Of a stretch of DNA of 53,380 nt, positions 12,817 to 52,140 are shown piece by piece. Numbering within the stretch: the stretch's first letter is position 1; each line of letters opens with the position of its first letter. This DNA comes from Prorocentrum cordatum. Taxonomy: Eukaryota. The stretch spans positions 62,001 through 115,380 of the forward strand of contig CAUYUJ010000321.1 in NCBI GenBank assembly GCA_963575745.1, given 5' to 3'. The translations under genes were made by a program, and so were the position numbers. The notes under the pieces are model-generated. The model worked only from the letters and a program-made list of their open reading frames with translations, was not told where the DNA came from and did no database searches.

Positions 12817-12833
12817 CTTGAGCCAAACTGGCT
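12817..12833 (-). other. DinoSL relic (16/17)
   Basis: Minus strand AGCCAGTTTGGCTCAAG versus AGCCATTTTGGCTCAAG. ATG lies 24 nt downstream at 12792. Confidence 0.75.
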
Positions 12834-13807
12834 TGACCCGACATGTTTCTTGGTTTCCGTCTTCCCCCCCGCTTCCCATACTTCCCAATATTCCGGGGAA
12901 TCGACGATTACTTGCGCCTGTGTGTTTTTCCCTCCTGACAAAAGGCCCAGGGATGAGGGGGACCAGCTCGTACCCCACTTGCAGGCTCCGCGCAGGAGTG
13001 AGCCAAGACAAGGGTGACGTTTGGTGCTCGGCCTCAGAGGGCCGCGAGGGGGCCGCTCTGACGCGCGGCCCAACCTGGGCGGCCTGCGCTGCCTCCTCTG
13101 ACAACCCTCCTCGCGACAGGGGCGGTGCGGACGGAGGTGACCGGCTCGGGGGGAAGATATATACCCAAGGGCTCCCAACTTCGCGCTTCGCGCAGCGCGA
13201 AGCGCGAAGTGCGAATAGCTTCGCGCTCTCGCGCCGCCTCCCAGGGGAGAAAAAGCAGAACGAAGAGGAATCGGAGCCGAAGTCTGAAGCGCGAAGCGCG
13301 AATGACTTCGCGCCCTCGAGGGCGCCCTTGAGACCTGGAATCGATGATGCATCGCTGACGGATCGACGATAGGCCAGGGCTACCGCATCCGCAAGATGTG
13401 CTGGGCCAGGGCTGGGGCCACCGGGCGCCCTTCGTCGATCGGTGGGCGACTGGAGGACGATGCGCCCCCTGGAGAGAGCCGGGCCACCTGGCCTTCGGAC
13501 TGGCCCACCGGAGGGCGTGCGAGCGGGCCCAGAGCGGAGCGGCAAGAGGCAGGGGAGCCGTGGTATGGACCGCCCTCGAACCGCGCCGGAGGGACCAGCG
13601 GAAAGAACTGGGCCGTCGCTGCCGACGTCGAGGCCCGAGTTAAGGTCAAGTCGAACGTGTCCCCCTACAGGGGGACTTTTTGGGCGAAAAAAAAACTCAA
13701 ACAAAAATGCCCACCAAGTACTCGAAAACCGTCAGAAAATCGTCCCCAGACAATTGTTTTACTACTTTTTTGAATACTCCCCCTGTGAGGGACACGCCCG
13801 ACTTAAC

Positions 13808-13970
13808 TGAAGGGGCCCTGGGACACACAAATAAATACACACAAATAAAAATATCGCCCATATTTTCCTTATTTCCTGGGGTTTTGTCTTCCCCACCACT
13901 TCCCATATTTTCCCATATTTTCTGGGGAATCGCCGATTAATTGTGTCTGTGTGTTTCTTTCCCCTCCTGA
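13808..13970. mobile_element. MITE family B (TGAAGGGG...CCCTCCTGA), 5-bp TSD TTAAC
   Basis: Exact TSD. Other copies at ~12840-12938 (partial), ~14095-14265, 33172-34125 (composite) and ~36366-36520. Confidence 0.85.
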
Positions 13971-14593
13971 TTAACGCGAGGGCGCGGCCACGAAGAGGTG
14001 CGCCGTACGCGAGAGCCCCCGAGGCCATGGCACCAGCGAGGGGGGGGGGCAGCCAGGAGCAGGAGGTCCGCTCGCCGGAGAGCAAGCTGAGTAGCAAGGG
14101 GCCCAAGGACACACAATTAAATGCACACAGATAACAGGATTCCCGTATATTTTCATATATGCTCTGGGTCTTTGTCTCCCCTCCCCCCCACACTTCCCAT
14201 ATTTTCCCATATTTTCTGGGGAATCGACGATTGATTGTGTCTGTGTGTGTTGTTTTCCCTCCTGAAGTAAGCTGAGTAGAAGGAGAGGAGGGTGGTCAGG
14301 CACTCAGAAGGCCCAGGGTGCGAGACGAGGACTGGTAGCCAGTCTCGAGATTGCTCCTACACCCAAGATCGACAAGGCAGGAGGCGATGGCGAGCACAGG
14401 GATGCGCCCTCAGAAACTGAGGGGATCGCGATCGGCATGGAGACAAGGTGGCAACAATCCTGCAATGAGGGCATGTTTCAGGCCTTGTAGATTGGCACGG
14501 AAGGTTCGTGTCGTGCCGACTTCGGCGTTGGTTTCTGACACAGCGGGGATCGCTCCATCTTGAACGATCGGCCGTTTCTGGAATGGCCGCTCC

Positions 14594-24706: not shown

Positions 24707-25096
24707 GCAGCAGCATCATCATCATCATCATCCGCCTCCTCCTCCTCTTCCTTCTCCTCTTTCCTCTCTCCTCTCTCCTCTCGCCTCTCGCCTCTCTCCT
24801 CTCTCCTCTGTCCATTATCATCTCTCCTCTCTCCTCTCTCCTCTTCCTCTCTCCTCTCTCCTCTCTCCTATCTCTTCTCTCCTCTCTCCTCTCTCCTCGC
24901 TCCTCCCTCCTCTCTCCTCTTCCTCTCTCCTCTATCCTCTCTCTTCTCGTCCTCTATCCTCTCTCCTCTCTCCTCTCTCCTCTCTCCTCTCTCCTCCCTC
25001 CTCTGTCCTCTTTCCTTTCCTCCTCCTCCTCCTCCTCCTCCTACTCCTCCTCCTACTCCTCCTCCGGCCTCCTCCTCCTCCTCCTCCTCCTCCTCC
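23770..25096. repeat. (CCT)n/(CAT)n/(CTCTC)n pyrimidine-rich field 5' of the LINE; (CCT)n resumes at 31686-31968
   Basis: Directly visible. Similar (GAG/CCT)n tracts at 5150-5560, 5760-5910 and 20200-20463. Confidence 0.95.
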
Positions 25097-25118
25097 TCCG
25101 TAGCCATTTTGGCTCAAG
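25097..25118 (+). other. Dinoflagellate spliced leader, perfect 22/22 copy
   Basis: TCCGTAGCCATTTTGGCTCAAG matches the DinoSL consensus DCCGTAGCCATTTTGGCTCAAG. Confidence 0.97.
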
Positions 25119-25251
25119 GTTGGGGTTAAACCTATCCTTAACTTCCCAACCTCCGCTCGAGCAGCAACAGGTGCATGCGCCCCGCGCGCCCCCGCGGTCC
25201 CCCTGGCCTCACAGTTTTGGTGGTGAAGTTTCTTCATCTCGTGTGTCAGCC

Positions 25252-26699
25252 ATGGCAGACCAGCGCGCCTTCCATCAGTGCAGTAACCCGCAGTGCTCAG
25301 GATGGATCTGGGCAAATCGGCGGGCACAATTTTGTGGGGACTGTGGGTCCCCTTTCGGCAGGGCAGTTCGTTTTGCAGACCCCAGCCCCCAAAGCCAAAC
25401 CGGAGGCCAAGCCCCACGCCCGTGGCCCCCCAGGCCACGGGCGTTGGGGCAGGCGCTCTGGCAGCCGCCCTCCCCCCCCTGCAGGCGTTGGGGGAGGGAG
25501 TGGGGGGCGCCAGCAATCAGCCCCCCCAGCAGCGGCAGCGGCAGCAGACGGAGGAGGAGGAGGAGGAGGAGGAGGAGGCCCAGCAGCCTCGGCTGCTGCC
25601 AACAGCAGCCCTGATGCTGTCACCTTCGCCCAGGACCACCTCTCATTCCTCCGTCGTTCAGGACTCGACCAGGAGCACCCCCTCATCAAGGCAGCTACCC
25701 AGGAGCTTCAGCAAGCCAAACGGGCGGCTTTGGCATCGAGGAGCCTGGGGGAGCAAACTACGAGCCTGGTTGATCAGTTGGATGCCCAACGGAAAAAGAG
25801 AGCCAAGTTGGACGCCAGTAATAAGAAGTTGTTGGAACAAGTTGCCCAGTTGCTCGAGCAACATTCAAAGGGCGAACAAGAGTTCAACAAGTGCGAACAG
25901 GAGATCACGGCTCTCCAGGCTCAGCTTACTGTCACGAGGAATGCAGCAGCAGCAGAGCTTTCAGTACAGCAAGGAGTTGTTTCCTTTGTCCAGTCTCACC
26001 TCCCCACTCTCCCTGGGTATCAGCCTACACAGGTCCTCCAGGATGCTATGGGGGTTATGGTACGAGAGCTGGAGCAGGCCAGGCAGTTGCAGCAGAACGC
26101 AGCAACAGCCGCAGCAGCCCCAGCAGCACGGCCAGGAGGAGGAGCAGGCGGAGGAGGAGCCCCAGGAGGAGGAGCGGCAGAGACGGCAGCAGGGGCGGAC
26201 GGAGCACAGCGGAGAGCGCCTCCCGCCGCGCCCGCCGCGCCCGCCGCCCCCGCGGCGCCCCGCGCCGACGTGCCTCCGCCCGCCGAGCCTCCACCCGAGG
26301 GGGCAAACGCGGCAGGGAGGGCGGAGGGGCAGGGAGCGCCAGAGGAAGGCCGAGGAGCAGCAGGAGGACAGCAGCCGCAGCAGCAGCAGCAGCCTCAGCC
26401 TTCCCTCCAACCTCAGCAGCCTCCGCCCCAGCAGTCAGCAGCAACGGCAGCCCCAGCAGTGGCAGCAGTCAACGGCGGTAACGGTGACGGACTTAATGAC
26501 CCTATTCCAGATTCCCCAGCTGAGATGGATGGTTGAGCTCATGGATCAGGCCGATGCCACTAAGAAGCGGAGCCTGGCAGCTCACCTTGAAAAGCTGGTC
26601 CAAAGCATGGAGGGCAAGTCCGATGCTGACGAGGCCATCCTCAAGAGACTCCGAGTGCATCGTGATGCACTTCAGTCGGCTGGCCCGTCAGGTGGGTAA
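25252..26699 (+). pseudogene. LINE ORF1: N-terminal C4 zinc-ribbon-like motif, coiled coil, Ala/Pro/Gln linker
   Basis: ATG 25252 opens MADQRAFHQCSNPQC...FCGDCG. A shift in the C-run near 25475 leads to a heptad-rich segment (LVDQLDAQRKKRAKL...EITALQAQL). A second shift near 26530 leads to ...QSAGPSGG*. Confidence 0.75.
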
Positions 26700-27410
26700 T
26701 ACTAGCCTCAAGGTTGTGACCATAAACGGCAGCTGCTGGAGGGCAGTAAAAGATTGTGTCACCTCTCCTTTTGCAGGACCCGTCGGCATTGTGCTAGCGC
26801 AAGAAATACGCCTCTGGCAACCAGAGGCAATAACATCGGCTACTACATGGGCCAGCTCTCAGGGCTGGCATGCTATCGTCACGCCAGCTCGCTCGACAGA
26901 CCAAGAGCGCCCCTCGGGGGGCACCGCGATCTTGATTCGAGCAGGTCTTGACTTAGGTGGTCGTTCTACCACACTACCTCATCTTCGTTCTACCACACTA
27001 CCTCATCTTGAAAGTCCCCATCGCCTGACAGCAGTTGCTGTGGAGGCACCTGGATTAGGCCAGCTGGCAGTTGTTTCGATCTATCTCTATGACTCGGAGG
27101 GGATGTCTCAGAGAAATGCCCAGTGGCTAGCAGCAGCGGGAGAGATCCAGCAGCAGTGCCAGATGCCGATGATGATGGGAGGTGACTTTAACCTTACTCC
27201 GACCACCTTGTTGCAGTCAGACTTTGTGGTGAGAGCGACAGTTCGGATTCATAGTACTGCTAAGCCCACACATGTTGCCAAGACGAGCAGGTCGATCTTG
27301 GATTAGTTTCTCGTGTCAGAAGCCTTGGATGACAGAGTGGTAGAGACCAGCGTCCTTGAATACCCCCTGGCCCCGCACAGAGTAGTGCAGTTGGAACTGA
27401 AAAGTGGGCA
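26665..27410 (+). pseudogene. LINE ORF2 APE endonuclease domain
   Basis: Motifs VVTING, VLAQE, SGGTAILIR, VVSIY, GGDFN, ILD*F (stop where an aromatic residue is expected) and PHRVV. Confidence 0.9.
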
Positions 27411-28117
27411 GTTTTTTATTCCAGTATTGCAGCAGCCTCAGCAGCTCCCCCGCGGCTTCCCCTTCGGCCCTCCCCTGCAGCATCTTCCTTGGACGGCAGC
27501 GACGGCGGCGATGAGTCAAGGCGGAGGAGATGTTGTTCACAGAGGAAGGCGAGGTGGTCAAGCACAGCATGGCAACCAAGCAAGCAGCCCTGGATGCCGC
27601 GTACCAGGCCCTGGTCCAGGACATGGAGCAGGCAATTGCTAGGAGCACGGATACGCAACTTCGTCAACCGCCTCTTCGCGGCAAACCTCCTACGGTGAAA
27701 TGGGCCCCCGCCACGGCCTTCCAGAAGAAGCACCAGAAGTCTTGGGTTTGGGGCTCCCTGGCGAAACCTCTGATCTGGCTCAGGGGCAAAGCGCAGGAAA
27801 CTAAGGCCTTCTTCGCGGGCAAGTGCAACGAGATTCGGAACCAATATCCGTATCACCAGGTCACGCCGCAACGAAAATATCACGAATTTCGGTGTCAAGA
27901 AAGTGTGACCAGCATTTCCAGATATGACGTCAACTGGGCCTTAGAAGAGGTTCAGTTCCCGCCCCAGCAGTTCAGCAACTCTGGGTCACTCCAGCAGGCC
28001 CTAGATACGTTTAGGAACCTCCTGCTGGCCATCGGTCTGGACAGCCAGGCCGGGTGCCTCAACGCCGAGTTGGTCGATCGCATGTTCGTTGATGTCTTAG
28101 ATGAGCTGGAGGAGTAG

Positions 28118-29580
28118 CATCAGCCAGGGGGAGAGGCAGAGCGCCAGCGACAGCAACAAGCAGTGGAGGGACTGGGTGGCCGAGGCCATGCAAGGAGGAG
28201 CGGGTAAAGCACACGCCTACTCTCGCAGTTCCCCCCCCCCCTGGCAGCCGCAGGCAGTTAGGCATGGAGGCAGGTGGTCAGGGAGGCCCAGTCACCTGCT
28301 GCAGGCCGAGGCAGGTAGGTTGCAGGAGCTGTGGCAGTCCTTATCTCACGAAGGCCCACTATTTCAGGGAGCCCCAGATGAAGAGCCGCCGTCACCACTA
28401 CAGCCTCAGCAGATCCTTGCAGCTGCCAAAACCTCCCCCAAGACCACAGGGATGACTTGGCACGTTTTTCACCCAGTGCACTTCAAAATGATTGGCCAAG
28501 TTGGGCTGGAGCTAATGGCTACCCTGTTCAAACTCGTGGAGGCCCTCGGGGCCTGTCCCACTCCGCTGCGCGCTGTTCTGACGGTGATCATTCCGAAGCA
28601 CGAGAAGACAGGCAGCCAGCCCCAGTACAGAGGTATAGGCATGCTCCCCAGCCCTTACAGGTTATGGGCACGCACTAGGCAGCACGTGGCCAAGTCTTGG
28701 GAACAGAACCACAAGATAGGGTTGTTGTGCCACCAATCGGGCAGGTCCATTTGTGAACTAGTCTATATGCAGGCCTTAAGTGCAGGAAGAGGACAGTACG
28801 TCAACCCCGTTATGCACACGGGCACGATCATGTGGGATTTAAGCAACTTTTACGAGCATGTGGACAGAGAGGACCTGTTCAAGAAAGCGCTCCACAACAA
28901 GTTCAGCACCCACATTTGATCGGTCATTCTTAATCAGCATAAGTCTAGAAGGTTAGTGTCGTTCTCGTCTATGGTTACCGACGTGGGCTACACCACCAGG
29001 GGCATCCCAGCAGGCGACAGCTTCGCCACTTACCTCGTTCAAATTTATTGCATCAACGAACTAGACGCCTGGCAGTCTCAGCACAGCATGGTGCAGCGTA
29101 GCGTCGTCATCGATGACTTCCTCCAGCAAGCTCAAAGCAGTTCTGTGCTGACGGTGCTGACAAACCTGACAGATGCAGCCCATGACATGCGACAGGTGAT
29201 CGAATTAGACCTACAGTGCTCTGTGGCCGATCACAAATCAGTAGTCCTTGCTTCTTCCGAGAATTTGCAGTTGCAGATAGTCAAGGCCCTTGGAACCAAA
29301 GGCGGACAGGCACTAGACTCGGCAGCCAACTTAGGCATCGACTACAGCGCTGGGCGCAGCAGAATGTACAAGAAGTACAGTCCTACAACAATAGGACGGC
29401 ACGCAAAGCTGCGCATGCGCCTCTTCAAACTCAACAGCCTTCGAGAAGGAGGGGCTACCATCAGTAAGCTGTACTCAGGTGGGTTGCAGCAGGCAGGATA
29501 CTACGGGACGGAGGTTGTAGGAGCGGATGACGGAGAAGTGAGGGCTATTCAAACCACGTTTTTAAAAGCATGCGGCCAAG
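28118..29580 (+). pseudogene. LINE ORF2 reverse transcriptase domain
   Basis: Motifs IIPK, YRGIGMLPSPYRLW, WDLSNFYEHV, RGIPAGDSFA, VIDD, HKSVV and NLGIDY, in non-LTR RT order. Confidence 0.92.
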
Positions 29581-31513
29581 ATGCACCACCAGGTCTCGCT
29601 CCCTCAGCCTCCTTATCCTCAACGACCCCACCTGGAAGGTAGCATGTGGCCCATGCCTGACGTGGGCAAAAATTGTTTGGAGGGCAGCAACAACCAATGC
29701 AGGAGGCTGGACATTGCCTCAGCTGCGCGATTTGGTGGAGCCAATTTTTAAAGCCCCCCCTAAGAGATGGACGGAGTCCCGGGGCCCTTTCGGAGCTTGT
29801 CTGTCGTCTCTCGGAAGGATTGGGTGGAAAGCGGTAAGCCCTTTTAAGTACCAAGATAAGGACGGCAGGACCTATATCCTCACCTCCGTGTCGCCCACGC
29901 TCCTCTCCGCAGCGCTACAGAGAGCCTGGAGGGACAGGCTGGTGGAGCAAGCGAGCCAGCGACTGGGATGGGTGGAGGATCAGGTCTGCGTCTCTGCTGC
30001 CCTTTCCATCCTCCACTCCCACTCTCGCCCTCCGCGCGAGCGCTCCATCCTCCTCGCCTTCCTTCCCCAAAACATATGGACCAAGTATGGTCTCAGCGAG
30101 GCAGGCTACGAAGTAGATACGAAATGCCCATGCGGGCACCAGCAGGATAGTATGCACCATCGGTTGTTTGAATGTGTGCTTTCGGCTGCGGACCGCAGCG
30201 AAGACTTAAGCTTTGAAGATAAAGAGACTCTCAGGACTGCCGATTGGGCTCACTTGCAGGCCGGCCTAGGAGTTAAGGATACCTTCGACAACCAGGCTCC
30301 ACCAGGGCTTGGTCTGGAGGAAGCGACGCTGTGGGCGGTTGACCCTCATACCACCCCAGCCCAAGCCCTGCAAGGTGAGCTGTACCTTGACGGCTCCTGT
30401 TTTAAAGACGGTCCCCAAAGTCACCATCGAGCTGGATGGGCCGTTGTAGCTCTCGACCCCATTTCGGGCGAAGCCCAAGCGGCCCTCGCGGGGCCAGTGG
30501 GACGCGAGCTTCCGCAAACGTCGCCTGCCGCCGAATATCTTGCGGCGCTCGCGGCTGTCAGATACGGCAGCAACATCACGTATCTTGTTGCTGACTACTC
30601 GGGCACGTGCAAGCTGCACGACCCAACATTGTCCCATAGGAATTTCTACGCTGGGATTAAGCTGTTAATTAAAGGTAGTCCAGGCTGGCATCGAGACCTC
30701 AGCCTAATTAAGGTCAAGGCGCACCAAGACTTAGACAGTCTGGAACGCCACACCGACGAATGGAGGAAGGCCGCTGGCAATGCCGAGGCGGACAAATGGG
30801 CGAAGTGGGCTGCCAACGAGCTGGCCAAACCCTCACCCGCCGAAGCGCAGATAAGTGAATACAGGTTTAAACTTTTGCAGCGGTTCCTCAGATATGTTTG
30901 CAAGGTCTTGCCAAAGTGGCCTCCTGTGGCCTCTTCGGCTGGAGGCAAAGCTCTGGCCAAACCAAGCAAGTCAAATTCCCCTCCTGTGGGGGCCGCCGCC
31001 GCCCCAGGCTCCAAGCCCGTGCCTCCTCCCCCCCGTCCTCCCGCTGCGACTCGGGGTGCTGGGGGTCTCCTTGTGCACGATTGGGTCTGGAGTCTGGGAG
31101 GCTGGGTGTGCAAGCTTTGTAAAACCCGAGCCTTGACGGACCATAGTAAAGAATCGAGGCTCAGTGAGAAGTGCACTGGCAGTTCTCCTTTGAAGACTCT
31201 CGCTGCAGACAGCCACGGCCACAAGCTGGTGGTTGCAGATTTTGCAACAGGAGAGAACTTTATCATTGCTTGTCAGATGTGCGGTGCTAATGCTGTGTCG
31301 AACCCACGTAACTTGACCTCTCCGTGCCCTGCGCAGTTTGCTGAGTGTCAGAACCGTGGAGCCCGATATGCATGGCAGCAGATCTGCAACGGCAGACATC
31401 CCAAGAAGTCGGGAGTTCAGCTGAATGGTGTTATCCCTCTTGACCAGCTTATGCTCTCTTTAGCTGAGGAGCAGGAGCGGGAGGCGGAGGTGGGGCAGGA
31501 GCAGGAGGGATGA
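29570..31513 (+). pseudogene. LINE ORF2 C-terminal part: CCHC-type finger, RNase H, Cys/His-rich tail
   Basis: CPCGHQQDSMHHRLFEC; RNase H motifs LYLDGS, AGWAVV, QTSPAAE, VADY, KVKAH and GNAEADKWA; then HDW..WVCKLC and HGH..CQMCG. Confidence 0.9.
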
Positions 31514-32140
31514 GCTCTCCTGCCGCCCGTCCGCCGCGGCCGCCAACAGCAGGCGCACCGCTCCCGCGCGCGCCCCCCCCTTGCAAAGGGTAGTGGGGCA
31601 GCGTAGCAGAGACACAGACGCTGCTAAGGTTTTGGGTTGGGTCGGTTCGGCCAACCCTCAGCCTTCCTTCCTTCTTACTGCGTGCTACTCCTCCTCCTCC
31701 TCCTCCTATTCCTATTCCTCCTCCTCATCCTCCTCCTCCTCCTCCTCCTCCTCCTCCTCCTCCTCCTCCCTCCTCCTCCTCCCTCCTCCTTCCTCCTCCC
31801 TCCTCCTTCCTCATCCTCCTTTTCCTCCTCCTCCTCCCTCCTCCTCCACTCCTCCTCTCCTCCTCCTCCTCCTCCTCCTCCTCCTCCTCCCCTCCTCCTC
31901 TCCTCCTCCTCCTCCCTCATCCTCCCTCCTCCTCCCCTCCTCCTCCTCCTCCTCCTCCTCCTCCTCCACAATTACTCAATATGAATACTACTCTCCGTCT
32001 TCCCCCGATGGCGGCCTGAAAGTAGCCGACCCCCCCCCGGCGTCCTGCTGTTTTACACACAGGATTCCCGGGAGTTGGGTTTTCGCCTGCATTTGTTCAA
32101 AACGCTGCTCTCGCCGAGGCGCCGGCCTCATTTTCGGGCC

Positions 32141-32832: not shown

Positions 32833-35800
32833 ACTCACTCCGTCTCGAGGATGCTGCCGTCGGGGGCGCTCGTGACCCTACGGCAGCAGAGGGGGCAGCA
32901 CTGCCGCTTGCCGCCCCAAGCCCGCCCGCTCTCTGACAGCCACCGGGCCGCACAGAGAGAGTGGAACGCGTGGCCACAGGGCCCGCCGCCGCGCTGTGCC
33001 GCGAATGCTTTCCTCTGGCGTGCGAAGGCATGCTCACGACACAGTGGATTTGTGCTGCGACGCCTCGCGGGGGTGGCGCCAGCCTGTAGTTACTGACTGC
33101 GCGTGATGTTGGGACTGGCTCGTTTCATCTCTCGCCTTGCAGTTATCGTGCTGCGCAAGGAACGCTGAGCATGAAGGGGCCCTGGGACACACACACACAC
33201 ACACACACACAAGTAGTCACAAACAACAGGACTGCCCTTATGTTTCCCCATCTGTTCTGGGCTTTCGCCTTCCCCCCCACCTCCCTGACCACCTACCAAA
33301 CCACCCCAACCCAACCCGAAGACCCGAATTTGACCCGAATTTCGGGTTGGGGAGGGGGTACGGGTTCCATGTGTCTTTTCGATGTTCCCCGACCCCCCTC
33401 CCACTGGAAATGGAGGGCAGATCGGGGCCTTCGGGTTGGGTTGGGGTGGTTTGGTGGGCGGCGACTCCCATAGCTCCCCATCTGTTCTGGGGGGGGCATC
33501 GACGATGCACTGTGTCTGTTTTGGACGCCCGACATGGGTACCGAAAAAATGGGCACGATGCCCAACAACAAATGTTGTCCCAAACCAACAGCGGCCGCTG
33601 TTGGGCAGGCGGCCTCCCTGTCTCGAATGGACACAGGCCGCGGCGGCGTGGACAGCGAGCCCTGTTCAAAGTGAACAAGATCCGCTGTTGGGCATCGTAC
33701 CCGTTCTTTCGGTACCCATTTCGGGCGTCCAGATCTGTGGTTCTTGCCCCTCCCGAGCGCGCGAGGAGTGCGAGGGGGGCCGCCTGGCCACGGCGGGCCC
33801 CGGCCGCGGGCAGAGGGCTCCCCGACCACCGGGCCCGAGGAGCGGCCCCACGGCCAAGGAGCCCCCGTCGCGGCGACGAGGGGGGCCCCGATCTCGGCCC
33901 CGGCCGTGGACGAGCCTCCCCGGTGTTCTGGGCATTTCGTCTTCCCCCCCACGTACCACAGCTCCCCATCTGTCCTGGGGCACCGACGACGCACCGTGTC
34001 TGTGGGGTTCTTGTCCCTCCCGAGTTCTGGGCATTCCGTCTTCCCCTCCCCCACTTCCCACGGCTCCCAACATGCCCTGGGGCACCGACGATGCACTGTG
34101 TCTGTGGGGTTCTTGTCCCTCCCGAGAGCGCGAGGAGTGCGGGGGGCGGCCCCACGGCCGGAGCCCCTCACTGCACCGAGGTGGCCCCGACCTCGGCTCG
34201 GCGGTGGACAAGCCTCCCTTTCGCAAACCTCCCCGTACAGGGCAGTGTTATTCTATACAAAGGATCTGTTTTTTTTTAATATATAAAAATGGGATGTTCA
34301 GTACATGATCCACCTGTGAACAAATGTATGCATGAACTCATCGTTGCCTCTAATGCTAAATCCCTGCATGTTTTAATACATGATCCGCACGCGGAGCATG
34401 TATTAAAAACGGCACTGTAGTGAATACGGCCTGGAGACGCCCTCTCGCGAACCGAAAACGGCCAATTCTTTAGTCTGGAGGAAAGAGAACTGTACACATG
34501 CACCGATTCTGGCCGGGCCCACCCTGAGCCCAGGATCGGTGCATACGCCATCCTGCCTTGGCCAGGAGGGCACATGCACCGATCCTGGGTGCCAGGATGG
34601 GCCAGGCCAAGATCGGTGCCTGTGCATAGTTCTCTTCGCCCGATAATCGACGTGTCAGGGTAGGAGGTCGATCCACCTTCGATCAGCGCATCGGCGGTGT
34701 GGGGAGGGATGGGCGGCTCGAGGGGGGGAGCCTCGGGCTGGCACCTGCGCTGTGTCGCCGACAGGTCAGCGGCAGGCCCCCGGTGGCGAAGCCGCGTGTT
34801 CCTGGACGGAGGGGGGCCGTCGTGCCCGTCGTGCCCGTCGGCGATGGATGGGCGGCTGAGGGTGGGCACTTCCCCCACCGAGCCCATCCACCGCTAACCT
34901 GGAGTGTGGGCCTTTGTCCGTTCCTGGCGGGCCTCCGAACTTGTTCGGTGGCAACCAGTTGCTCTCTGGAGGCCTCTGGATTGAGCAGGGGCCGACCGTC
35001 CTGGCATTCCTGTAGTCCTACCACGGAATTCTCTTAGAGCCCAAAAATGTTCTAAGAGCAAAAAAAATGTTCTTAGAAAATAATCCCGATTTGCTAAACC
35101 AAGACAGGCTCCGCAAGACATGTGCCAAGAACAATTCGTGGGAACCACAAAAAGTTCTTAGAACATCGTCTGGTAGGACTATAGGCACGCCAGGACGCTT
35201 CGCCACTGCTCGAAGATGCTCTCTGGAGGCCTCTGGGGAGAGTTCGGAAGCCTTGCGGAGACCGTCCGGCGGTGCTCTCGGGTGCTGGGGAGGGGCCCGC
35301 TCGCTGCGGCACGATGGTCCAGACCTCCCTGGCGCCACCGGGGCAGTAATGCACGCGTTGCTCTGTCCAGGTCTCCGAATGTTGGGCCCTCACCGTCTGA
35401 ACACCATCGTGCAGAACAGCTGACTACGTACCAGACCACCCCAACCCAACCCGAAGACCCGAATTTCGGGTTGGGGGGGGGAAGGGTTCCACACGTGTTT
35501 TTGCGATGTTTCCCGACACCCCCCCCACTGGAAATCGAGGGTAAATCTGAGCCTTCGGGTTGGGTTGGGGTGGTTTGGTGGGTGGTGAACAGCAACTTCA
35601 GCGTCGGAGACCCCATACCCACAGCCACCCACCAGCATTTGGACGCTGCTTGCCCTTACTGAGCATCCGGAGACCTTTGGAGGTCTCACTCCAAGCCACC
35701 CACCGGGCGCCCCTCCTCCCAGCCACGCACAGCAAGTTGGCGGATATGCGCGGCAGCGCAGTTGCACAGCTGCACAAGCGTCTCCTCCGAGCCCACGTCG

Positions 35801-37220
35801 TCAATACAAATAGCACACTGGTCGACGCCACAATCGCCAGCTTGGACAGTGGAAAGGGATGAGAAGGCGGGGCTCGTGGTGCTATCATCCTGTGGCTGCA
35901 GCCGGAGCATAATAAAGGAGCTACTGCTCACTCCCTGCTTCATGAACCTCGACCCCAGCTCGTCGATATCGCGAAGCCAGTTGGCGCCAGCATTTTTGGG
36001 AGGTCTGGCTCAGGGGTCGCCAAAATTGAGCAGGGACCGACCGACCCGGCATTCCTATAGTCGTTCCAAGAAATGCTCTTAGAACCCAAGAATGTTCTAA
36101 TAATAAAAACAATGTTCTTAGAACATAAACCCCATGTGTTAAAACAAAACAATATCCGCCAGAAACGTTCTAAGAACATTTCGTGGGAACCACAAAAGGT
36201 TCTTAGAACATGGCTCGGTGGGGCTATAGGCGGGCCAGGACGCTTCGCCGCTGCTTGACAAAAGCATTTCTGGCCCTTAAGGTGTCCCCAGCCTCGTGCG
36301 CCAGCCGCGCCAGCCCGGACCCCCCTGTGGGGCCCTCTGGGCCCCGCGGGGGGAGCTCTGGACATTAAAGGGGCCCCAGGAGACACAAGTAAATGCACAC
36401 AAATAAAAAGATTCCCCATATTTTCCGACATGTTCTGCCCACACTTCCCATATTTCCCCATATTTTCCTGGGGATCGTCGACAACATGTGTCGGTGTGTT
36501 TCTGTTCCCTCCCGACTGCAGACATCCTGGGGCCTCCCTGGGAGCACCCTGCAGGACGCCTTCCGGGCCAGGAACCCGCCTCCGAGAGCGACCCCTGGCT
36601 GGTGGACACCCTCATCACCAGGGCGCCGGGCCGCTGGATCTCCTCCAGGATGGACCAGTAGCCCGTGGCCCCGTTCACGCGCGTGACGAGGCAGCCGGGG
36701 CGCAGCGCCCGCTCCGGGTGTGCCCTGTTCCACTCGCCGAGGAGGCCCCGCTCCTCGATCGCGACGACCACGGCCCCCTCCTTGGGGCGCCCGAGTTATC
36801 CTGGGCAACTCGGGTCCGGGGTAACTCGGGTTCGGCTTCCCGAAAAAAAGGAACCCGAGTTAGCCCTGACCCGAGATACCCCTGATGATTTTGGGGCTCT
36901 GGACGCCCGAATTATCCGGGGTAACTCGGGTTCGGATTCCCGAAAAAACGAACCCGAGTTAACCCTGACCCGAGTTACCCTTAATGATTTTGGGGCTATG
37001 ACTCCTCGCTGTTGCCGAGGGCAGCGCCGAGGACGTCCCCCGGGCGCTTGAGCACGTCCACGGCGAAGCCCTCGGGCGGCGCGGCGGCCGCCCCGGACGC
37101 CCGCGCGCCCTCGCGGCCGAGGCGGCCGCACCCCTCCCCGGCGAGCCCGGGGGCGGGCCCCGCGGCGCCCGCCACGGGGTCGCGGCAGAGGCCCTTCCCG
37201 AGCGCGGGCGTGGGGCCCAT
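32833..37220 (-). CDS. Multi-exon PDZ-like + RING-H2 protein (putative E3 ubiquitin ligase); boundaries approximate
   Basis: Exon ~37220-37005 (FAVDVLKRPGDVLGAALGNSE). Exon 36780-~36600 (EGAVVVAIEERGLLGEWNRAHPERALRPGCLVTRVNG). Exon ~36008-35770 (...DQCAICIDDVGSEETL). Exon ~32990-32833 (PCGHAFHSLCAARWL...CCPLC...ILETE*). Joined they give C3H2C3. Confidence 0.8.
33286..33464. mobile_element. MITE family C, 5-bp TSD CTCCC, nested in a family B element
   Basis: TIR core ACCACCCCAACCCAACCCGAAG; exact TSD. Confidence 0.88.
33520..33733. mobile_element. MITE with ~48-bp TIR, 5-bp TSD TCTGT, nested in a family B element
   Basis: TTTGGACGCCCGACATGGGTACCGAAA... versus TCTGGACGCCCGAAATGGGTACCGAAA...; exact TSD. 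Confidence 0.88.
35421..35588. mobile_element. MITE family C, 5-bp TSD ACAGC
   Basis: Same TIR core; exact TSD. Confidence 0.88.
36026..36258. mobile_element. MITE family D (TTGAGCAG...CTGCTTGA), 5-bp TSD CAAAA; second copy at 34981-35213
   Basis: About 35-bp imperfect TIR; the two copies align along their length. Confidence 0.85.
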
Positions 37221-37428: not shown

Positions 37429-37905
37429 GTCTGGGGGGGCGGTAGGACTGGGGAGGGGCAGAGGTGCCCTTCTCGGGCCCCAGTGGCCCCCCTCTGGGGC
37501 CCCCACGGGGCCCCTTTGGGGGGGGGACCTCTCGAGGGCCCCTCTTCGGCAGCCCTCGCTGCCCCGCCTCGTGCATCGCCCCCCCCAGCACGCGCCCCCC
37601 AAAGGCCGGCTGGATGGGGGGGGCAGCTGATGGCTGTCGCTCCTGGCTGCGAGAGCGTCTCCAGCTCGCTCGGGCCAAGAAAACTGCGGAGAGGAGCGGA
37701 GGCATGACGAGGACGAGAGAAGAGGGAGTAGGAGAGTGCGAGGGATGACGGGAGAGCAGCTGGATCAAAAGGCCAGGCCGCGAAGAAGCAAAGCGTGTCC
37801 GAAGGGCTACCCTATAGATCAGATAAGACTAAAAGTTGGCATATTTATATAGAAGTTAACAACACATGGAAATATTATCAAAATGCCGGGAAGTTAACAA
37901 AACCG

Positions 37906-37997
<92 letters not shown>

Positions 37998-39667
37998 GAC
38001 ACAACGCCGAAAAATTTAACAAACCAGGGCAAGTTATCAACGTTAAGTTTCGCTCGTGCGTCTGACAACTTTTGTGTGTCAGAATGATAACTGTTTGGTT
38101 GTATGATATTTTTTTGTCGGGGCTGTGTTTATCAGCGAATCGTTCAAAATGTGTGTCTGTGTCGTTGCATGTGTGTTGCATGTTTGTTGCAGTTTCGTTG
38201 CATTTTCGTTGCAGTTTCGTTGCAGTTTTGTTGCAGTGTTGTTGCAGTTGTGTTGCAGTTTTTTGTGCAGATTTGGTGCAGATGTGATTGCTGCTTGTTT
38301 TGCTGTTGTGACGTTGCTAATCGTTGGGGCCCAAACTTTCCAGGGCGATCGGGCGTCGGAATGTGCGAAACGTTTGGAGTATCCAGATGTTTGTGCTTAT
38401 TTTTTTCCAATCGCGTTTTTCATCCTCCTCATCATCGCCATCATCATAATCATCATCATCAGATGCATCAGCATCATCAACATCATCATCATCATCCCCG
38501 CCCCGATCCTCGTAATGATCCTCCTCTTCCGCCTCCCCATCATCCTCCTCCTCGACATCCTCTCAATCATCCTCCTCTTCCTCCTTCTCTTCCGCCTCTT
38601 GCTCCTCCTCCCTCGTCCTCCTCCTGCGGCTCCTCCTCCTCCTCCTCCTTTTGCTGCTGTTCCTCCTCCTCCTCCATCCTCTTCCCCCCTCCTCTTCCCC
38701 CCTCCTTCCTCCTCCTCCTACCTCCTCCTCCTCCCGTTCTTTGTTTCTCCTCCTCCTCTTCCTCCGTTCCAGCTCCTCCTCCTCATCCTCCTCCTCCTCC
38801 TCCCCCCCCCCCTCCGCCTCCCCGGCCGCGCCTCCTTCGGGCGGGCGGAGCGGCGGAATTGGCACTGATGGGGGCGACTCGGGTGATATGTTGAAGGATG
38901 GGGGCGCTGTCTCGCAGGCTCAGTTCTGGCGTGTACCTTCAGGGACACCGTCACAAGTCACGCAGAATGTGGTGTACCTCCAGGGGCCCCGTGTACCTTC
39001 AGAAACCCCGTGTAACTTCAGGGACCCCGTCACGCGTCACGCCGTGCACCTTCAGGAGCCTCGCGTGCACCTTCAGGGCCCCCGTCGCTAGCCGACCGTG
39101 AGATATGAGATATGACATTTAGAGCCCACCTACAGAGCTTTCCTCTGGATCTTGCATGTAGAGCGCACCTTCCGATCTTCATACACAACCCCCTCCCCAC
39201 ATCCTCCTCCGCGTCGTCGTCGCCCTCCTCATCCTCCTCCTCCTTCCTTGTCGCCCTCCTCCTGCTATCCTCCTCCTCCTCCTCTTCCTCCTCCTCCTCC
39301 CCTCCTCCTCCTCCTCCTCCTCCTCCTCCTCCTCCTCCCCCTCCTCCTCCCCCCCCTCCTCCCCCTCCTCATCCCCCCCCCCTCCTCCTCGTCCCCCTCA
39401 TGTGTTTCTACATGCGCAGTGTTTAGAATGTACGTTACATGTCGGGCCTCCCTCACATTTTCCCGCGTCAACTGCATGTTCATGGCAACGTGCTGGAACA
39501 CGCAAGCTGCGTTCCACAATCGCGCTGTAACACGCAAGCCGTGTTCCACAATCATAGAATATAAACGCTGTGACACAACAATCAACTCACAATCAACTCA
39601 GATCAAATTCCCACAGTCAAATCAAACTGTGACACAATCCGCTGTGAATCAAATTCCAACAATCAAA

Positions 39668-42666: not shown

Positions 42667-43068
42667 TGGGGGGGTGGATGGGGGAGGGCGGGGGCGGGGG
42701 AACTCAGGGCGCGAATTACCTACCCCGCTTTCGCTCCCACGCAAAACCGAGTCATGCCACGCGCCTCCTCGTCAAGCGGCCTGGCCAGCGCAGGCCGTAG
42801 TTTGGCGTCGCGTGGTACCTCTTGGGGGCGAGGGCTGTCAAAAGCGAAGTATGTTTGTTGTCGCCCTGGAAACTGGCGTTGGAGGAGCGGGAGGATGGCG
42901 GCGATAAGCCGAGGCAGGTGGAAACGGAGGATGAGGGGGATGAGCAGGATGAGGAGGAGGAACAGGAGGAGGAGGATGAGAAGGAACAGGACGAGGAGGA
43001 GCAGGAACAGGAGGATGATGCCGAGGAAGATTGCGATAGGATGGGGGGGGGGGGGGGGGGGGGGGGGT

Positions 43069-43127
<59 letters not shown>

Positions 43128-43402
43128 TGGGGGATAAGCGGGAGAGGCAGAAACCCTGGGCAAGACAGTTGGAGACCCGTTTTTGCGGTTGGAGGTGGGA
43201 GGCATACGAAGATGAAGTAGGTGAGGAGGAAGGGCTGCTTGGTTGGAGGGCGAGGGTATTCCACCAAGCTGCTGGAGGCGCTGGATGTCGCCGTAGTAGC
43301 AGCTGCTGATGCTGCCATTGCCCTATGCCGAGCGCCTCCCTTGCGCCGTCCTTTCACCAATCCAATGTGGTAGTTCACAGCGAACAGGGATCTGGAAAGC
43401 TC

Positions 43403-43425
43403 CTTTGAGCCAAAATGGCTACGGA
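43403..43425 (-). other. DinoSL relic (21-nt exact plus one inserted A) upstream of the transposase region
   Basis: Minus strand reads TCCGTAGCCATTTTGGCTCAAAG. ATG at 43318 opens MAASAAATTATSS...LTYFIF, followed by GTATG. Confidence 0.93.
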
Positions 43426-44142: not shown

Positions 44143-44658
44143 TCCAGCGCACTCCCGCCCCCACATACCCATCGCTGCGTCCAAATCGCCCTCCCGCGAA
44201 AGAGAATGAGCTGAGGCGCGCAAGCGACATCTTTTAGATCACGCCGCCGCGCTGCGAACTCCGCGGGGCGCGCAGTGCCCGATGGCGGGCTCGATGTACG
44301 TGGAACTGCCAGATGGCAGCACACGTAATCCCAATTAATGTTGACGCCGATGGGCACAATACTTCACACCTGCCCGACCCACGACGCAGGCGACAACTCT
44401 CTTGGACAAAGCAATAGAGAACACGATGGCAGGGTGCGCGCGTAGGGAACATGATGGATGAGTAGGTTGCGTGGGCAGGGTGCTCGAGTAGAGTGCGCGA
44501 GCAGGGGTCAATGATGCATGGCAGGGCGATGCAGGGTGTGGGAGTGATGCATGGCAGGGCGCGTGAGTAGGGTGCCTGGGTAGGGTGCAAATGGGGCGAT
44601 CTGGATGAGAGGGGTGCGACGGGGGGGGGGGGGGCGACGGGGGGGGGGGGGGGGGGGT

Positions 44659-44701
<43 letters not shown>

Positions 44702-45184
44702 GGGGGGGGGGGGCTACACAGTGTGTACCAATGCATAGCATATGCCATGTTCTGCCTGGGCTGCAATTATTGCAAAGGAGTGCACTTCTGACTTAGGCGA
44801 TTTGAAACAAAAGCATGAAAAAAAACCAAACCTACACGCTCTTGTCACCGTCACGCGTTATGCAACACTCGCACATGTTGCCACATCTACGATACACGCT
44901 GTCACCAGCATATGATGGCACAGCCACATGTGTTACCACAGTCGCATACTACATGTACCGCACTCGCTGACAATCGCCAATGGTCATCAACATAAGAATG
45001 GCTGGATACGGCACAAATGCAAAAGCATGTCTACACACACGAAAGTGTCGTTGCGTATACTGCACGTGGAATTATGTAACACTTCCTCTTCCTCCTCCTC
45101 CTCCTTTTCCTTATCCTCCCCCGACTCCTCCCCCTCCCTTGCCCCACCCCCCTCTATAGTTATCGTGTAAGCACCGTGTCTGCT

Positions 45185-51665: not shown

Positions 51666-52071
51666 CTAGGCATCCATAGAATCGTCATGCTGCGCAAGCC
51701 TCTCCTCGAATGCGTGCATTTCGACGTCTATCGGGGCTATGAATTCTTCGTCGGAAACTTCATCGTAATCGTCACACTCACGAGGCAGAGTCGCCGTGTC
51801 CAATGCAATTTTTTGAAAGCCGGTCGTGTAGCACTGCCACATAACCATGTCGCATGTCGCGGCGTTGTCGTTCACCTTCCCCAACCACGCGGCAAGTGCA
51901 TCGCAAACACATGTCCTGCCATGATTCACGTATCCACACACCCACCCACCCACTCACTCGCTCACTCACTTACGTACGCGCACTCTTACTCACTCGCTCT
52001 CTCACCAACTCTCTCGATCACACACTTAACGACGCACTTGCACTCGCACACCAGCAACGCGAACAACAACA

Positions 52072-52140
<69 letters not shown>

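Follow-up and report, generated by a model that had tools for sequence, protein, structure and literature searches.

A LINE copy in Prorocentrum cordatum that begins with a complete dinoflagellate spliced leader, probably the scar of a trans-spliced and fully reverse-transcribed message

Introduction

SLACS/CZAR/CRE and NeSL-1 are retrotransposons that adjoin spliced-leader (SL) sequence through insertion at a fixed site in SL RNA genes, with both halves of the interrupted gene flanking the element. The subject of this report is a long interspersed nuclear element (LINE) at positions 25097-31685 of a 53,380-nt stretch of DNA from Prorocentrum cordatum (assembly GCA_963575745.1, contig CAUYUJ010000321.1, positions 62,001 to 115,380, forward strand), which was analyzed at its full length and is called the window below. 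This element likewise adjoins spliced-leader sequence, but it has the whole leader at its 5' end only and lies between microsatellite flanks.

Retrogenes with relics of the dinoflagellate spliced leader (DinoSL) were reportedly described by Slamovits and Keeling in 2008 as a 'recycling of processed cDNAs'. The window element resembles them in being a retro-copied unit whose 5' end is a genomic copy of the leader and whose template would have been a trans-spliced RNA. It differs from them in being a retrotransposon's own message rather than a host gene copied in trans, and in carrying the full 22-nt leader, with neither a truncated relic nor a poly(A) tail. In L1, the 5' end is set by an internal promoter. 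With L1-like APE-type LINEs the window element shares two open reading frames (ORFs), an APE endonuclease followed by a reverse transcriptase (RT), the absence of long terminal repeats and the presence of many diverged copies, whereas it is set apart by its RNase H and its Cys-rich C-terminus, by having no poly(A) and by owing its 5' end to the host leader. Kibi, Koshi, Waldo and Mino are LINEs that target microsatellites. The window element is comparable to these in being embedded in a single microsatellite that extends to either side of it, as is a second leader-headed element (L142, described below) in (AG)n; in contrast to them, each family is represented here by one copy, from which a target preference is not to be inferred.

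Trypanosomes, all of whose mRNAs are trans-spliced, are likewise host to LINEs, the L1Tc/ingi elements. L1Tc is reported to be transcribed from a 77-nt promoter of its own, Pr77, into unspliced RNAs (PMC1874656, PMC8190864), whereas the window element carries the host leader. Leader relics in dinoflagellate retrogenes are explained by an mRNA-recycling model (PMC12014239, PMC7245778, PMC5585692); the TTT(T/G) motif of the relics has been proposed as a retrogene promoter, and the mediator of the reverse transcription behind leader-tagged retrogenes is stated to be unknown (PMC5585692). Long cDNA reads primed on DinoSL or selected by cap have been produced (PMC8045281, PMC7245778). A statement on LINEs that begin with DinoSL did not emerge from full-text searches of the literature and was not found in the available text of PMC12014239, PMC3229502, PMC8045281, PMC7245778, PMC3942190, PMC11453091, PMC5585692 and bioRxiv 10.1101/2022.04.12.488082, nor in the Results of PMC6616646; the supplements, which lie outside this scope, might list leader-tagged RT genes.

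Leader, 5' end and insertion site

The element and its flanks are composed of the following features, in window coordinates.

24730-25096, no strand: upstream flank, pyrimidine microsatellite, (CTCTCCT)n then (CCT)n; presumed target
25097-25118, + strand: complete spliced leader; exact match, 0 expected by chance
25119-25251, + strand: 5' untranslated region (UTR), 133 nt, with GT and a hairpin at its start
25252-26699, + strand: ORF1, with a Cys-x4-Cys...Cys-x2-Cys motif, a low-complexity stretch and a coiled-coil-like part; weak Pfam hints
26698-27513, + strand: ORF2 part 1, APE-type endonuclease; in-frame TAG at 27304-27306
27566-29558, + strand: ORF2 parts 2 and 3, linker and reverse transcriptase; in-frame TGA at 28917-28919
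29534-31513, + strand: ORF2 part 4, zf-RVT-like zinc knuckle, RNase H-like domain and Cys-rich C-terminus; stop at 31511-31513
31514-31685, + strand: 3' UTR with a hairpin at 31626-31665, no poly(A)
31686-31969, no strand: downstream flank, (CCT)n-type microsatellite like that upstream

The unit opens with the complete 22-nt dinoflagellate spliced leader, TCCGTAGCCATTTTGGCTCAAG, which occupies 25097-25118 of the + strand. The 21-nt core of the leader is matched exactly and only once on the + strand of the window, the 22nd (first) letter, T, is present too, and none of 100 shuffles contained any match at up to 3 mismatches. The perfect leader noted in the first-pass annotation is therefore present, with an ambiguity of 3 nt: TCC at 25097-25099 is shared with the period of the CCT repeat, which leaves 19 nt (25100-25118) as securely leader, and the three shared letters may be a junction microhomology. 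The same annotation had reported a 133-nt 5' UTR followed by ORF1, nothing but microsatellite upstream and no remainder of an SL gene at the 3' flank, and each of these points was borne out. The first ATG of ORF1 is located at 25252, (CTCTCCT)n followed by (CCT)n extends to 25099, and the 3' flank consists of (CCT)n, with no other leader match on the + strand.

Directly 3' of the leader stand GT and a 32-nt hairpin (25119-25150), the junction reading CTCAAG/GTTGGGG. An older leader relic was not detectable in the element's 5' UTR, as 1491 of 2000 shuffles scored equally well. A relic-free 5' UTR fits a parent without a genomic leader as well as the use of the last AG of the leader, and does not decide between the two. 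The upstream flank provides a ready-made polypyrimidine tract ahead of the AGs of the leader; pyrimidine tracts account for 3.7% of the + strand of the window.

The unit ends at about 31685, where a (CCT)n-type repeat resumes and continues to about 31969. This repeat can be read as a tail or as the target, and the presence of (CCT)n on both flanks prevents a target-site duplication from being delimited. Priming at or in microsatellites is suggested, on the basis of one copy per family, by the lack of poly(A) and by the fact that here, as in L142, a single type of repeat flanks the element on both sides. Comparison of the element's 5' and 3' ends gave a GC-rich 18-mer as the best local alignment, which is no better than alignments with other parts of the element. 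Rfam returned no SL RNA family, but only sub-threshold snoRNA noise, which fell in microsatellite.

Identity of the element

Judged by its predicted proteins, the unit at 25097-31685 is an APE-type LINE with RNase H; the LINE identity assigned at first pass is confirmed by the domains of its relatives, by alignment and by a profile match. In the element's own ORF pieces, Exo_endo_phos was matched on 26524-27306 with an E value of 1.3e-4 and 22.3 bits, just below the curated Pfam cut-off of 24.5, zf-RVT was matched weakly (1.2e-3), and an RT domain was not found by Pfam in the broken pieces. The piece 29531-31510 yielded 1197 relatives at E values of at most 1e-3 (among 1.84 billion representatives). 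The full-length relatives P0010, P0015 and P0018 (1551-1637 aa), encoded on metagenome contigs of 5-6.7 kb, have Exo_endo_phos, RVT_1, zf-RVT and RNase_H. Exo_endo_phos scored above the cut-off in P0015 (39.4 bits) and P0018 (27.7 bits), and RVT_1 was found in P0015 and in ORF2 of L142. These three relatives align, in changing frames, to 26698-27513, 27566-27817, 28125-29558 and 29534-31408, with their RT region on 28125-29558.

A profile built from 12 relatives had human LINE-1 ORF2p as its best match (4.4e-13), with R2 proteins matched more weakly; P0015 on its own gave no match in the PDB. Neither terminal repeats nor a second copy were found within the window, where blastn returned the self-match and two low-complexity matches of 43-49 nt only.

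A second leader-headed LINE

An exact scan for the leader 21-mer in bacterial and archaeal assemblies yielded 20 loci. One of these, L142 (also L134; G001:C12:1-9096), is a 9096-nt contaminant contig in a bacterial metagenome-assembled genome (MAG) and carries an intact leader-headed LINE. Its layout is (AG)n, the leader at 117-137, a 93-nt UTR, ORF1, ORF2, a short A-run and again (AG)n. ORF1 encodes a RanBP-type zinc ribbon (1.6e-7). ORF2 is uninterrupted (2536 aa), with matches to Exo_endo_phos (5e-9), RVT_1 (5.4e-11) and RNase_H (1.3e-5), and has an N-terminal extension of about 1150 aa ahead of the endonuclease. The identity between the RT of L142 and that of the window element is 23-25%. 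The leader of L142 is not followed by GT, and a significant relic is absent (446 of 2000 shuffles scored equally well). L142 is an independent, distantly related LINE from another source, with the same head as the window element and also situated inside a microsatellite. A search for further LINEs in five contaminated MAGs retrieved L142 itself and one weak match only.

Origin of the leader-headed copy

The unit at 25097-31685 is probably the scar of a LINE mRNA that was trans-spliced and then fully reverse-transcribed. This origin, which had been put forward at first pass, is upheld as the best reading because the unit is a leader-headed LINE, because it did not arise by insertion into an SL RNA gene and because the independent L142 starts in the same way. 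LINE transcripts would be trans-spliced like other dinoflagellate Pol II messages, which would provide a template RNA with the 22-nt leader. The element's reverse transcriptase would copy this RNA all the way to its capped end or stop one to three bases short of it, and the end of the cDNA would be joined to the target, possibly via the TCC microhomology, so that a full-length LINE copy would come to lie in the (CCT)n microsatellite.

The leader would then be a product of trans-splicing, a start with the leader would be the rule in the family, and the leader would now be of service to the element. It could supply the cap for translation and, on read-through, AG acceptors behind a polypyrimidine tract, and its TTTT/TTTG might act as a core-promoter motif as proposed for retrogenes. 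A more general proposition, put forward tentatively, is that dinoflagellate LINEs as a rule, in lineages as diverged as those of the window element and of L142, have lost an internal promoter, depend on read-through, receive from the host leader a 5' end that is defined, capped and open to translation, and carry that leader, together with the AG acceptors and the TTTT motif in it, to new sites, often microsatellites, and that the same enzymes are the makers of leader-tagged retrogenes.

Leader relics are an accepted mark of retro-copied dinoflagellate genes. On the favored reading, leader-headed LINE copies would mean that LINE messages are trans-spliced and that a LINE RT copies leader-capped RNA to its end; the LINE RT would be a concrete candidate for the machinery behind leader-tagged retrogenes. 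This would form a contrast to the LINEs of trypanosomes, which keep a promoter of their own. The window copy is one more instance and not a proof of dependence on trans-splicing.

Several observations weigh against a trans-spliced, fully copied message. Three of the 22 leader bases are explicable by the flanking repeat. The GT and the stable hairpin behind the leader resemble the apparent SL RNA genes found in four loci of the 21-mer scan (L126, L127, L133 and L139). The element's 3' end has no poly(A), although a mature mRNA template should have had one. The 5' end of the family is known from one copy only. Some of the 1-nt frame shifts described below could be assembly errors, which makes the degree of decay uncertain.

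Among the alternatives, a self-renewing cycle would involve a promoterless family that is read through and trans-spliced, in each generation, at the last AG of its own genomic leader. The one perfect leader, which no relic follows, the long polypyrimidine tract directly upstream and the equally single leader of L142, which also lacks a significant relic, are in line with such a cycle. The last acceptor would, however, be AAG, whereas in published relics the first letter is leader position 8 (CCATTTTGGCTCAAG), since splicing uses as its acceptor the AG at positions 6-7, which is part of UAG at positions 5-7, and normal re-splicing leaves a 15-nt relic (PMC12014239, PMC5585692). A further locus of the scan, L132, shows the leader followed by two such 15-nt relics. 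With the AG at positions 6-7 as the acceptor, the 5' end is lengthened in each round and not restored. Exact regeneration of the 5' end by re-splicing at the last AG is not supported by what is known, and the self-renewing cycle is considered unlikely. A fusion with an unspliced SL RNA, in which 25097 to about 25159 would correspond to exon plus intron, is regarded as the main rival and is given a lower probability still. It would account for the GT right behind the leader and the hairpin that follows, and the total of about 63 nt is near the apparent SL RNA length in L126, L127, L133 and L139. The six gene copies in these loci (two each in L127 and L133) have A before the core and GTAC behind it, then a hairpin and, about 35-42 nt past the exon, a CCTTTTT-like run, whereas no U-run is found past the hairpin in the window, which has T and GTTG in place of A and GTAC and shows no sequence likeness to these copies, the comparison genes being from other organisms. 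Moreover, microsatellite and not a gene flank lies upstream, the window contains no SL array, and the leader of L142 has no following GT.

Misassembly, or the chance meeting of a leader relic with a 5'-truncated LINE, would be conceivable in a window rich in repeats and long homopolymers, which invite assembly errors; against this, the junction is clean, an ordinary UTR leads to the start of ORF1 133 nt on, and the same architecture recurs in L142 from an unrelated assembly, so that such an origin appears very improbable. The lowest probability, close to none, is given to site-specific insertion into an SL RNA gene in the manner of SLACS/CZAR/CRE or NeSL-1. It would explain no more than the leader sequence found at one of the element's ends, and it is contradicted by a complete leader at the 5' end with no part of it, or of an SL gene, at the 3' flank, by (CCT)n on both flanks and by an endonuclease of the APE type.

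Decay of the copy and related copies

The copy of the element has two in-frame stops (27304-27306 and 28917-28919), both inside stretches that align to relatives, and five frame-breaking indels, near 25380, 26524, 27516, 28111 and 29575. Contigs from four DNA runs were compared with the element. Among the pieces listed, none extends over 25097-25159, the nearest one from run X1 starting at 25160, and no weight is given to this gap. At 25379/25380 the window is 11 nt short of the contigs of runs X1 and X4, and X1 contigs have one nucleotide fewer at 27516 and at 28111 and one more at 29575; the frame kept by the relatives is restored by each of the four differences. The 4 extra nucleotides of the window at 26524 are absent from three X1 contigs and one X4 contig, and their removal would extend ORF1 to 26699, by frame arithmetic and not by alignment to relatives. 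The three single-base frame shifts do not lie within long homopolymers. Regardless of how these are read, the copy is defective ('dead'), as the two stops, together with the changes of 11 nt and 4 nt, suffice.

Altogether, 382 X1 contigs were placed on the element, 26 of them with an identity of at least 99%, 91 with 95-99%, 120 with 90-95% and 145 with less than 90%. The eight longest X1 pieces showed differences at 121 of 4024 letters, and pieces of the element were also present in three metagenome runs. The window element belongs to a multi-copy, diverged family, because the X1 contigs differ among themselves and lack the indels of the window, and because the three metagenome runs hold pieces of it.

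No other copies were obtained from viral contigs, either with the ORF1 protein or with a two-sequence ORF2 alignment. A 24-nt pattern from the 5' UTR was not found in genome contigs or viral contigs, and a protein word search with the translated leader, UTR and start of ORF1 gave none at near lengths and none among 66 longer candidates. The single metagenome-contig match to the ORF1 protein (L001) was rejected as a false match, since it lies in a bacterial high-GC contig.

Leader-headed loci in other DNA

Among the loci of the 21-mer scan, the leader abuts a microsatellite in L121:1-59 (GT-rich), L124:1-52, which is (TCA)n, and L136:1-55, which is (GACA)n. The ORFs of these three loci gave no Pfam family except for one weak WW match. 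Together with the window element and L142, they hint that retro-copies often land in microsatellites. The leader is preceded by ordinary sequence in eight other leader-headed contigs (L123, L125, L130, L132, L138, L048, L050 and L085). L137 also appears to contain an SL RNA gene, and its contig, like those of L126, L127, L133 and L139, had been binned into a bacterial MAG. In L129:4950-5080, on a 209-kb contig of bacterial type, the 21-nt leader lies between two identical 19-nt copies (TTTTGCTTGCAGGCGTGAG) and may be a primer or assembly artefact.

In L002-L120, which are IMG/VR contigs mostly from giant-virus MAG bins, the exact leader occurred 134 distinct times. AT-rich contigs (GC content 14-37%) contained 130 of these occurrences, of which 126 were preceded by A and 120 had very AT-rich sequence in the 30 nt upstream, where motifs such as TTTTTATTTTTAAATATAAATTTTA recur. 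Where enough downstream sequence was present (117 of the AT-rich occurrences), an ORF of at least 100 aa with an ATG start began within 200 nt of the leader in 105 cases. These contigs suggest that genes with a genome-encoded dinoflagellate leader exist in giant-virus-like, or otherwise AT-rich, genomes.

Other features of the window

Pfam searches with the 76 other ORFs of the window assigned no family at 1e-4. A second copy of the leader, with one mismatch (it ends in CAAA), is located at 43404-43424 on the - strand and is preceded by ordinary sequence. About 90 nt past it, an ATG opens an Ala/Ser-rich ORF that runs into a C-run of about 100 nt; this unit is likely a retro-copied gene. At 12817-12842 on the - strand, GGGTCAAG is followed by CCAGTTTGGCTCAAG, which looks like a worn leader-relic array ahead of ATGs and would be the third mark of retro-copying in the window. 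Homopolymers of about 70-100 nt are present as A-runs (37904-37999 and 52069-52140) and as G-runs, which are C-runs on the other strand (43038-43134 and 44617-44710); they could be the tails of retro-copies or artefacts of long-read assembly. A repeat of about 88 nt (family D20) occurs in five copies with 60-85% identity, at 13884-13971, 14178-14265, 33937-34024, 34039-34126 and 36429-36516.

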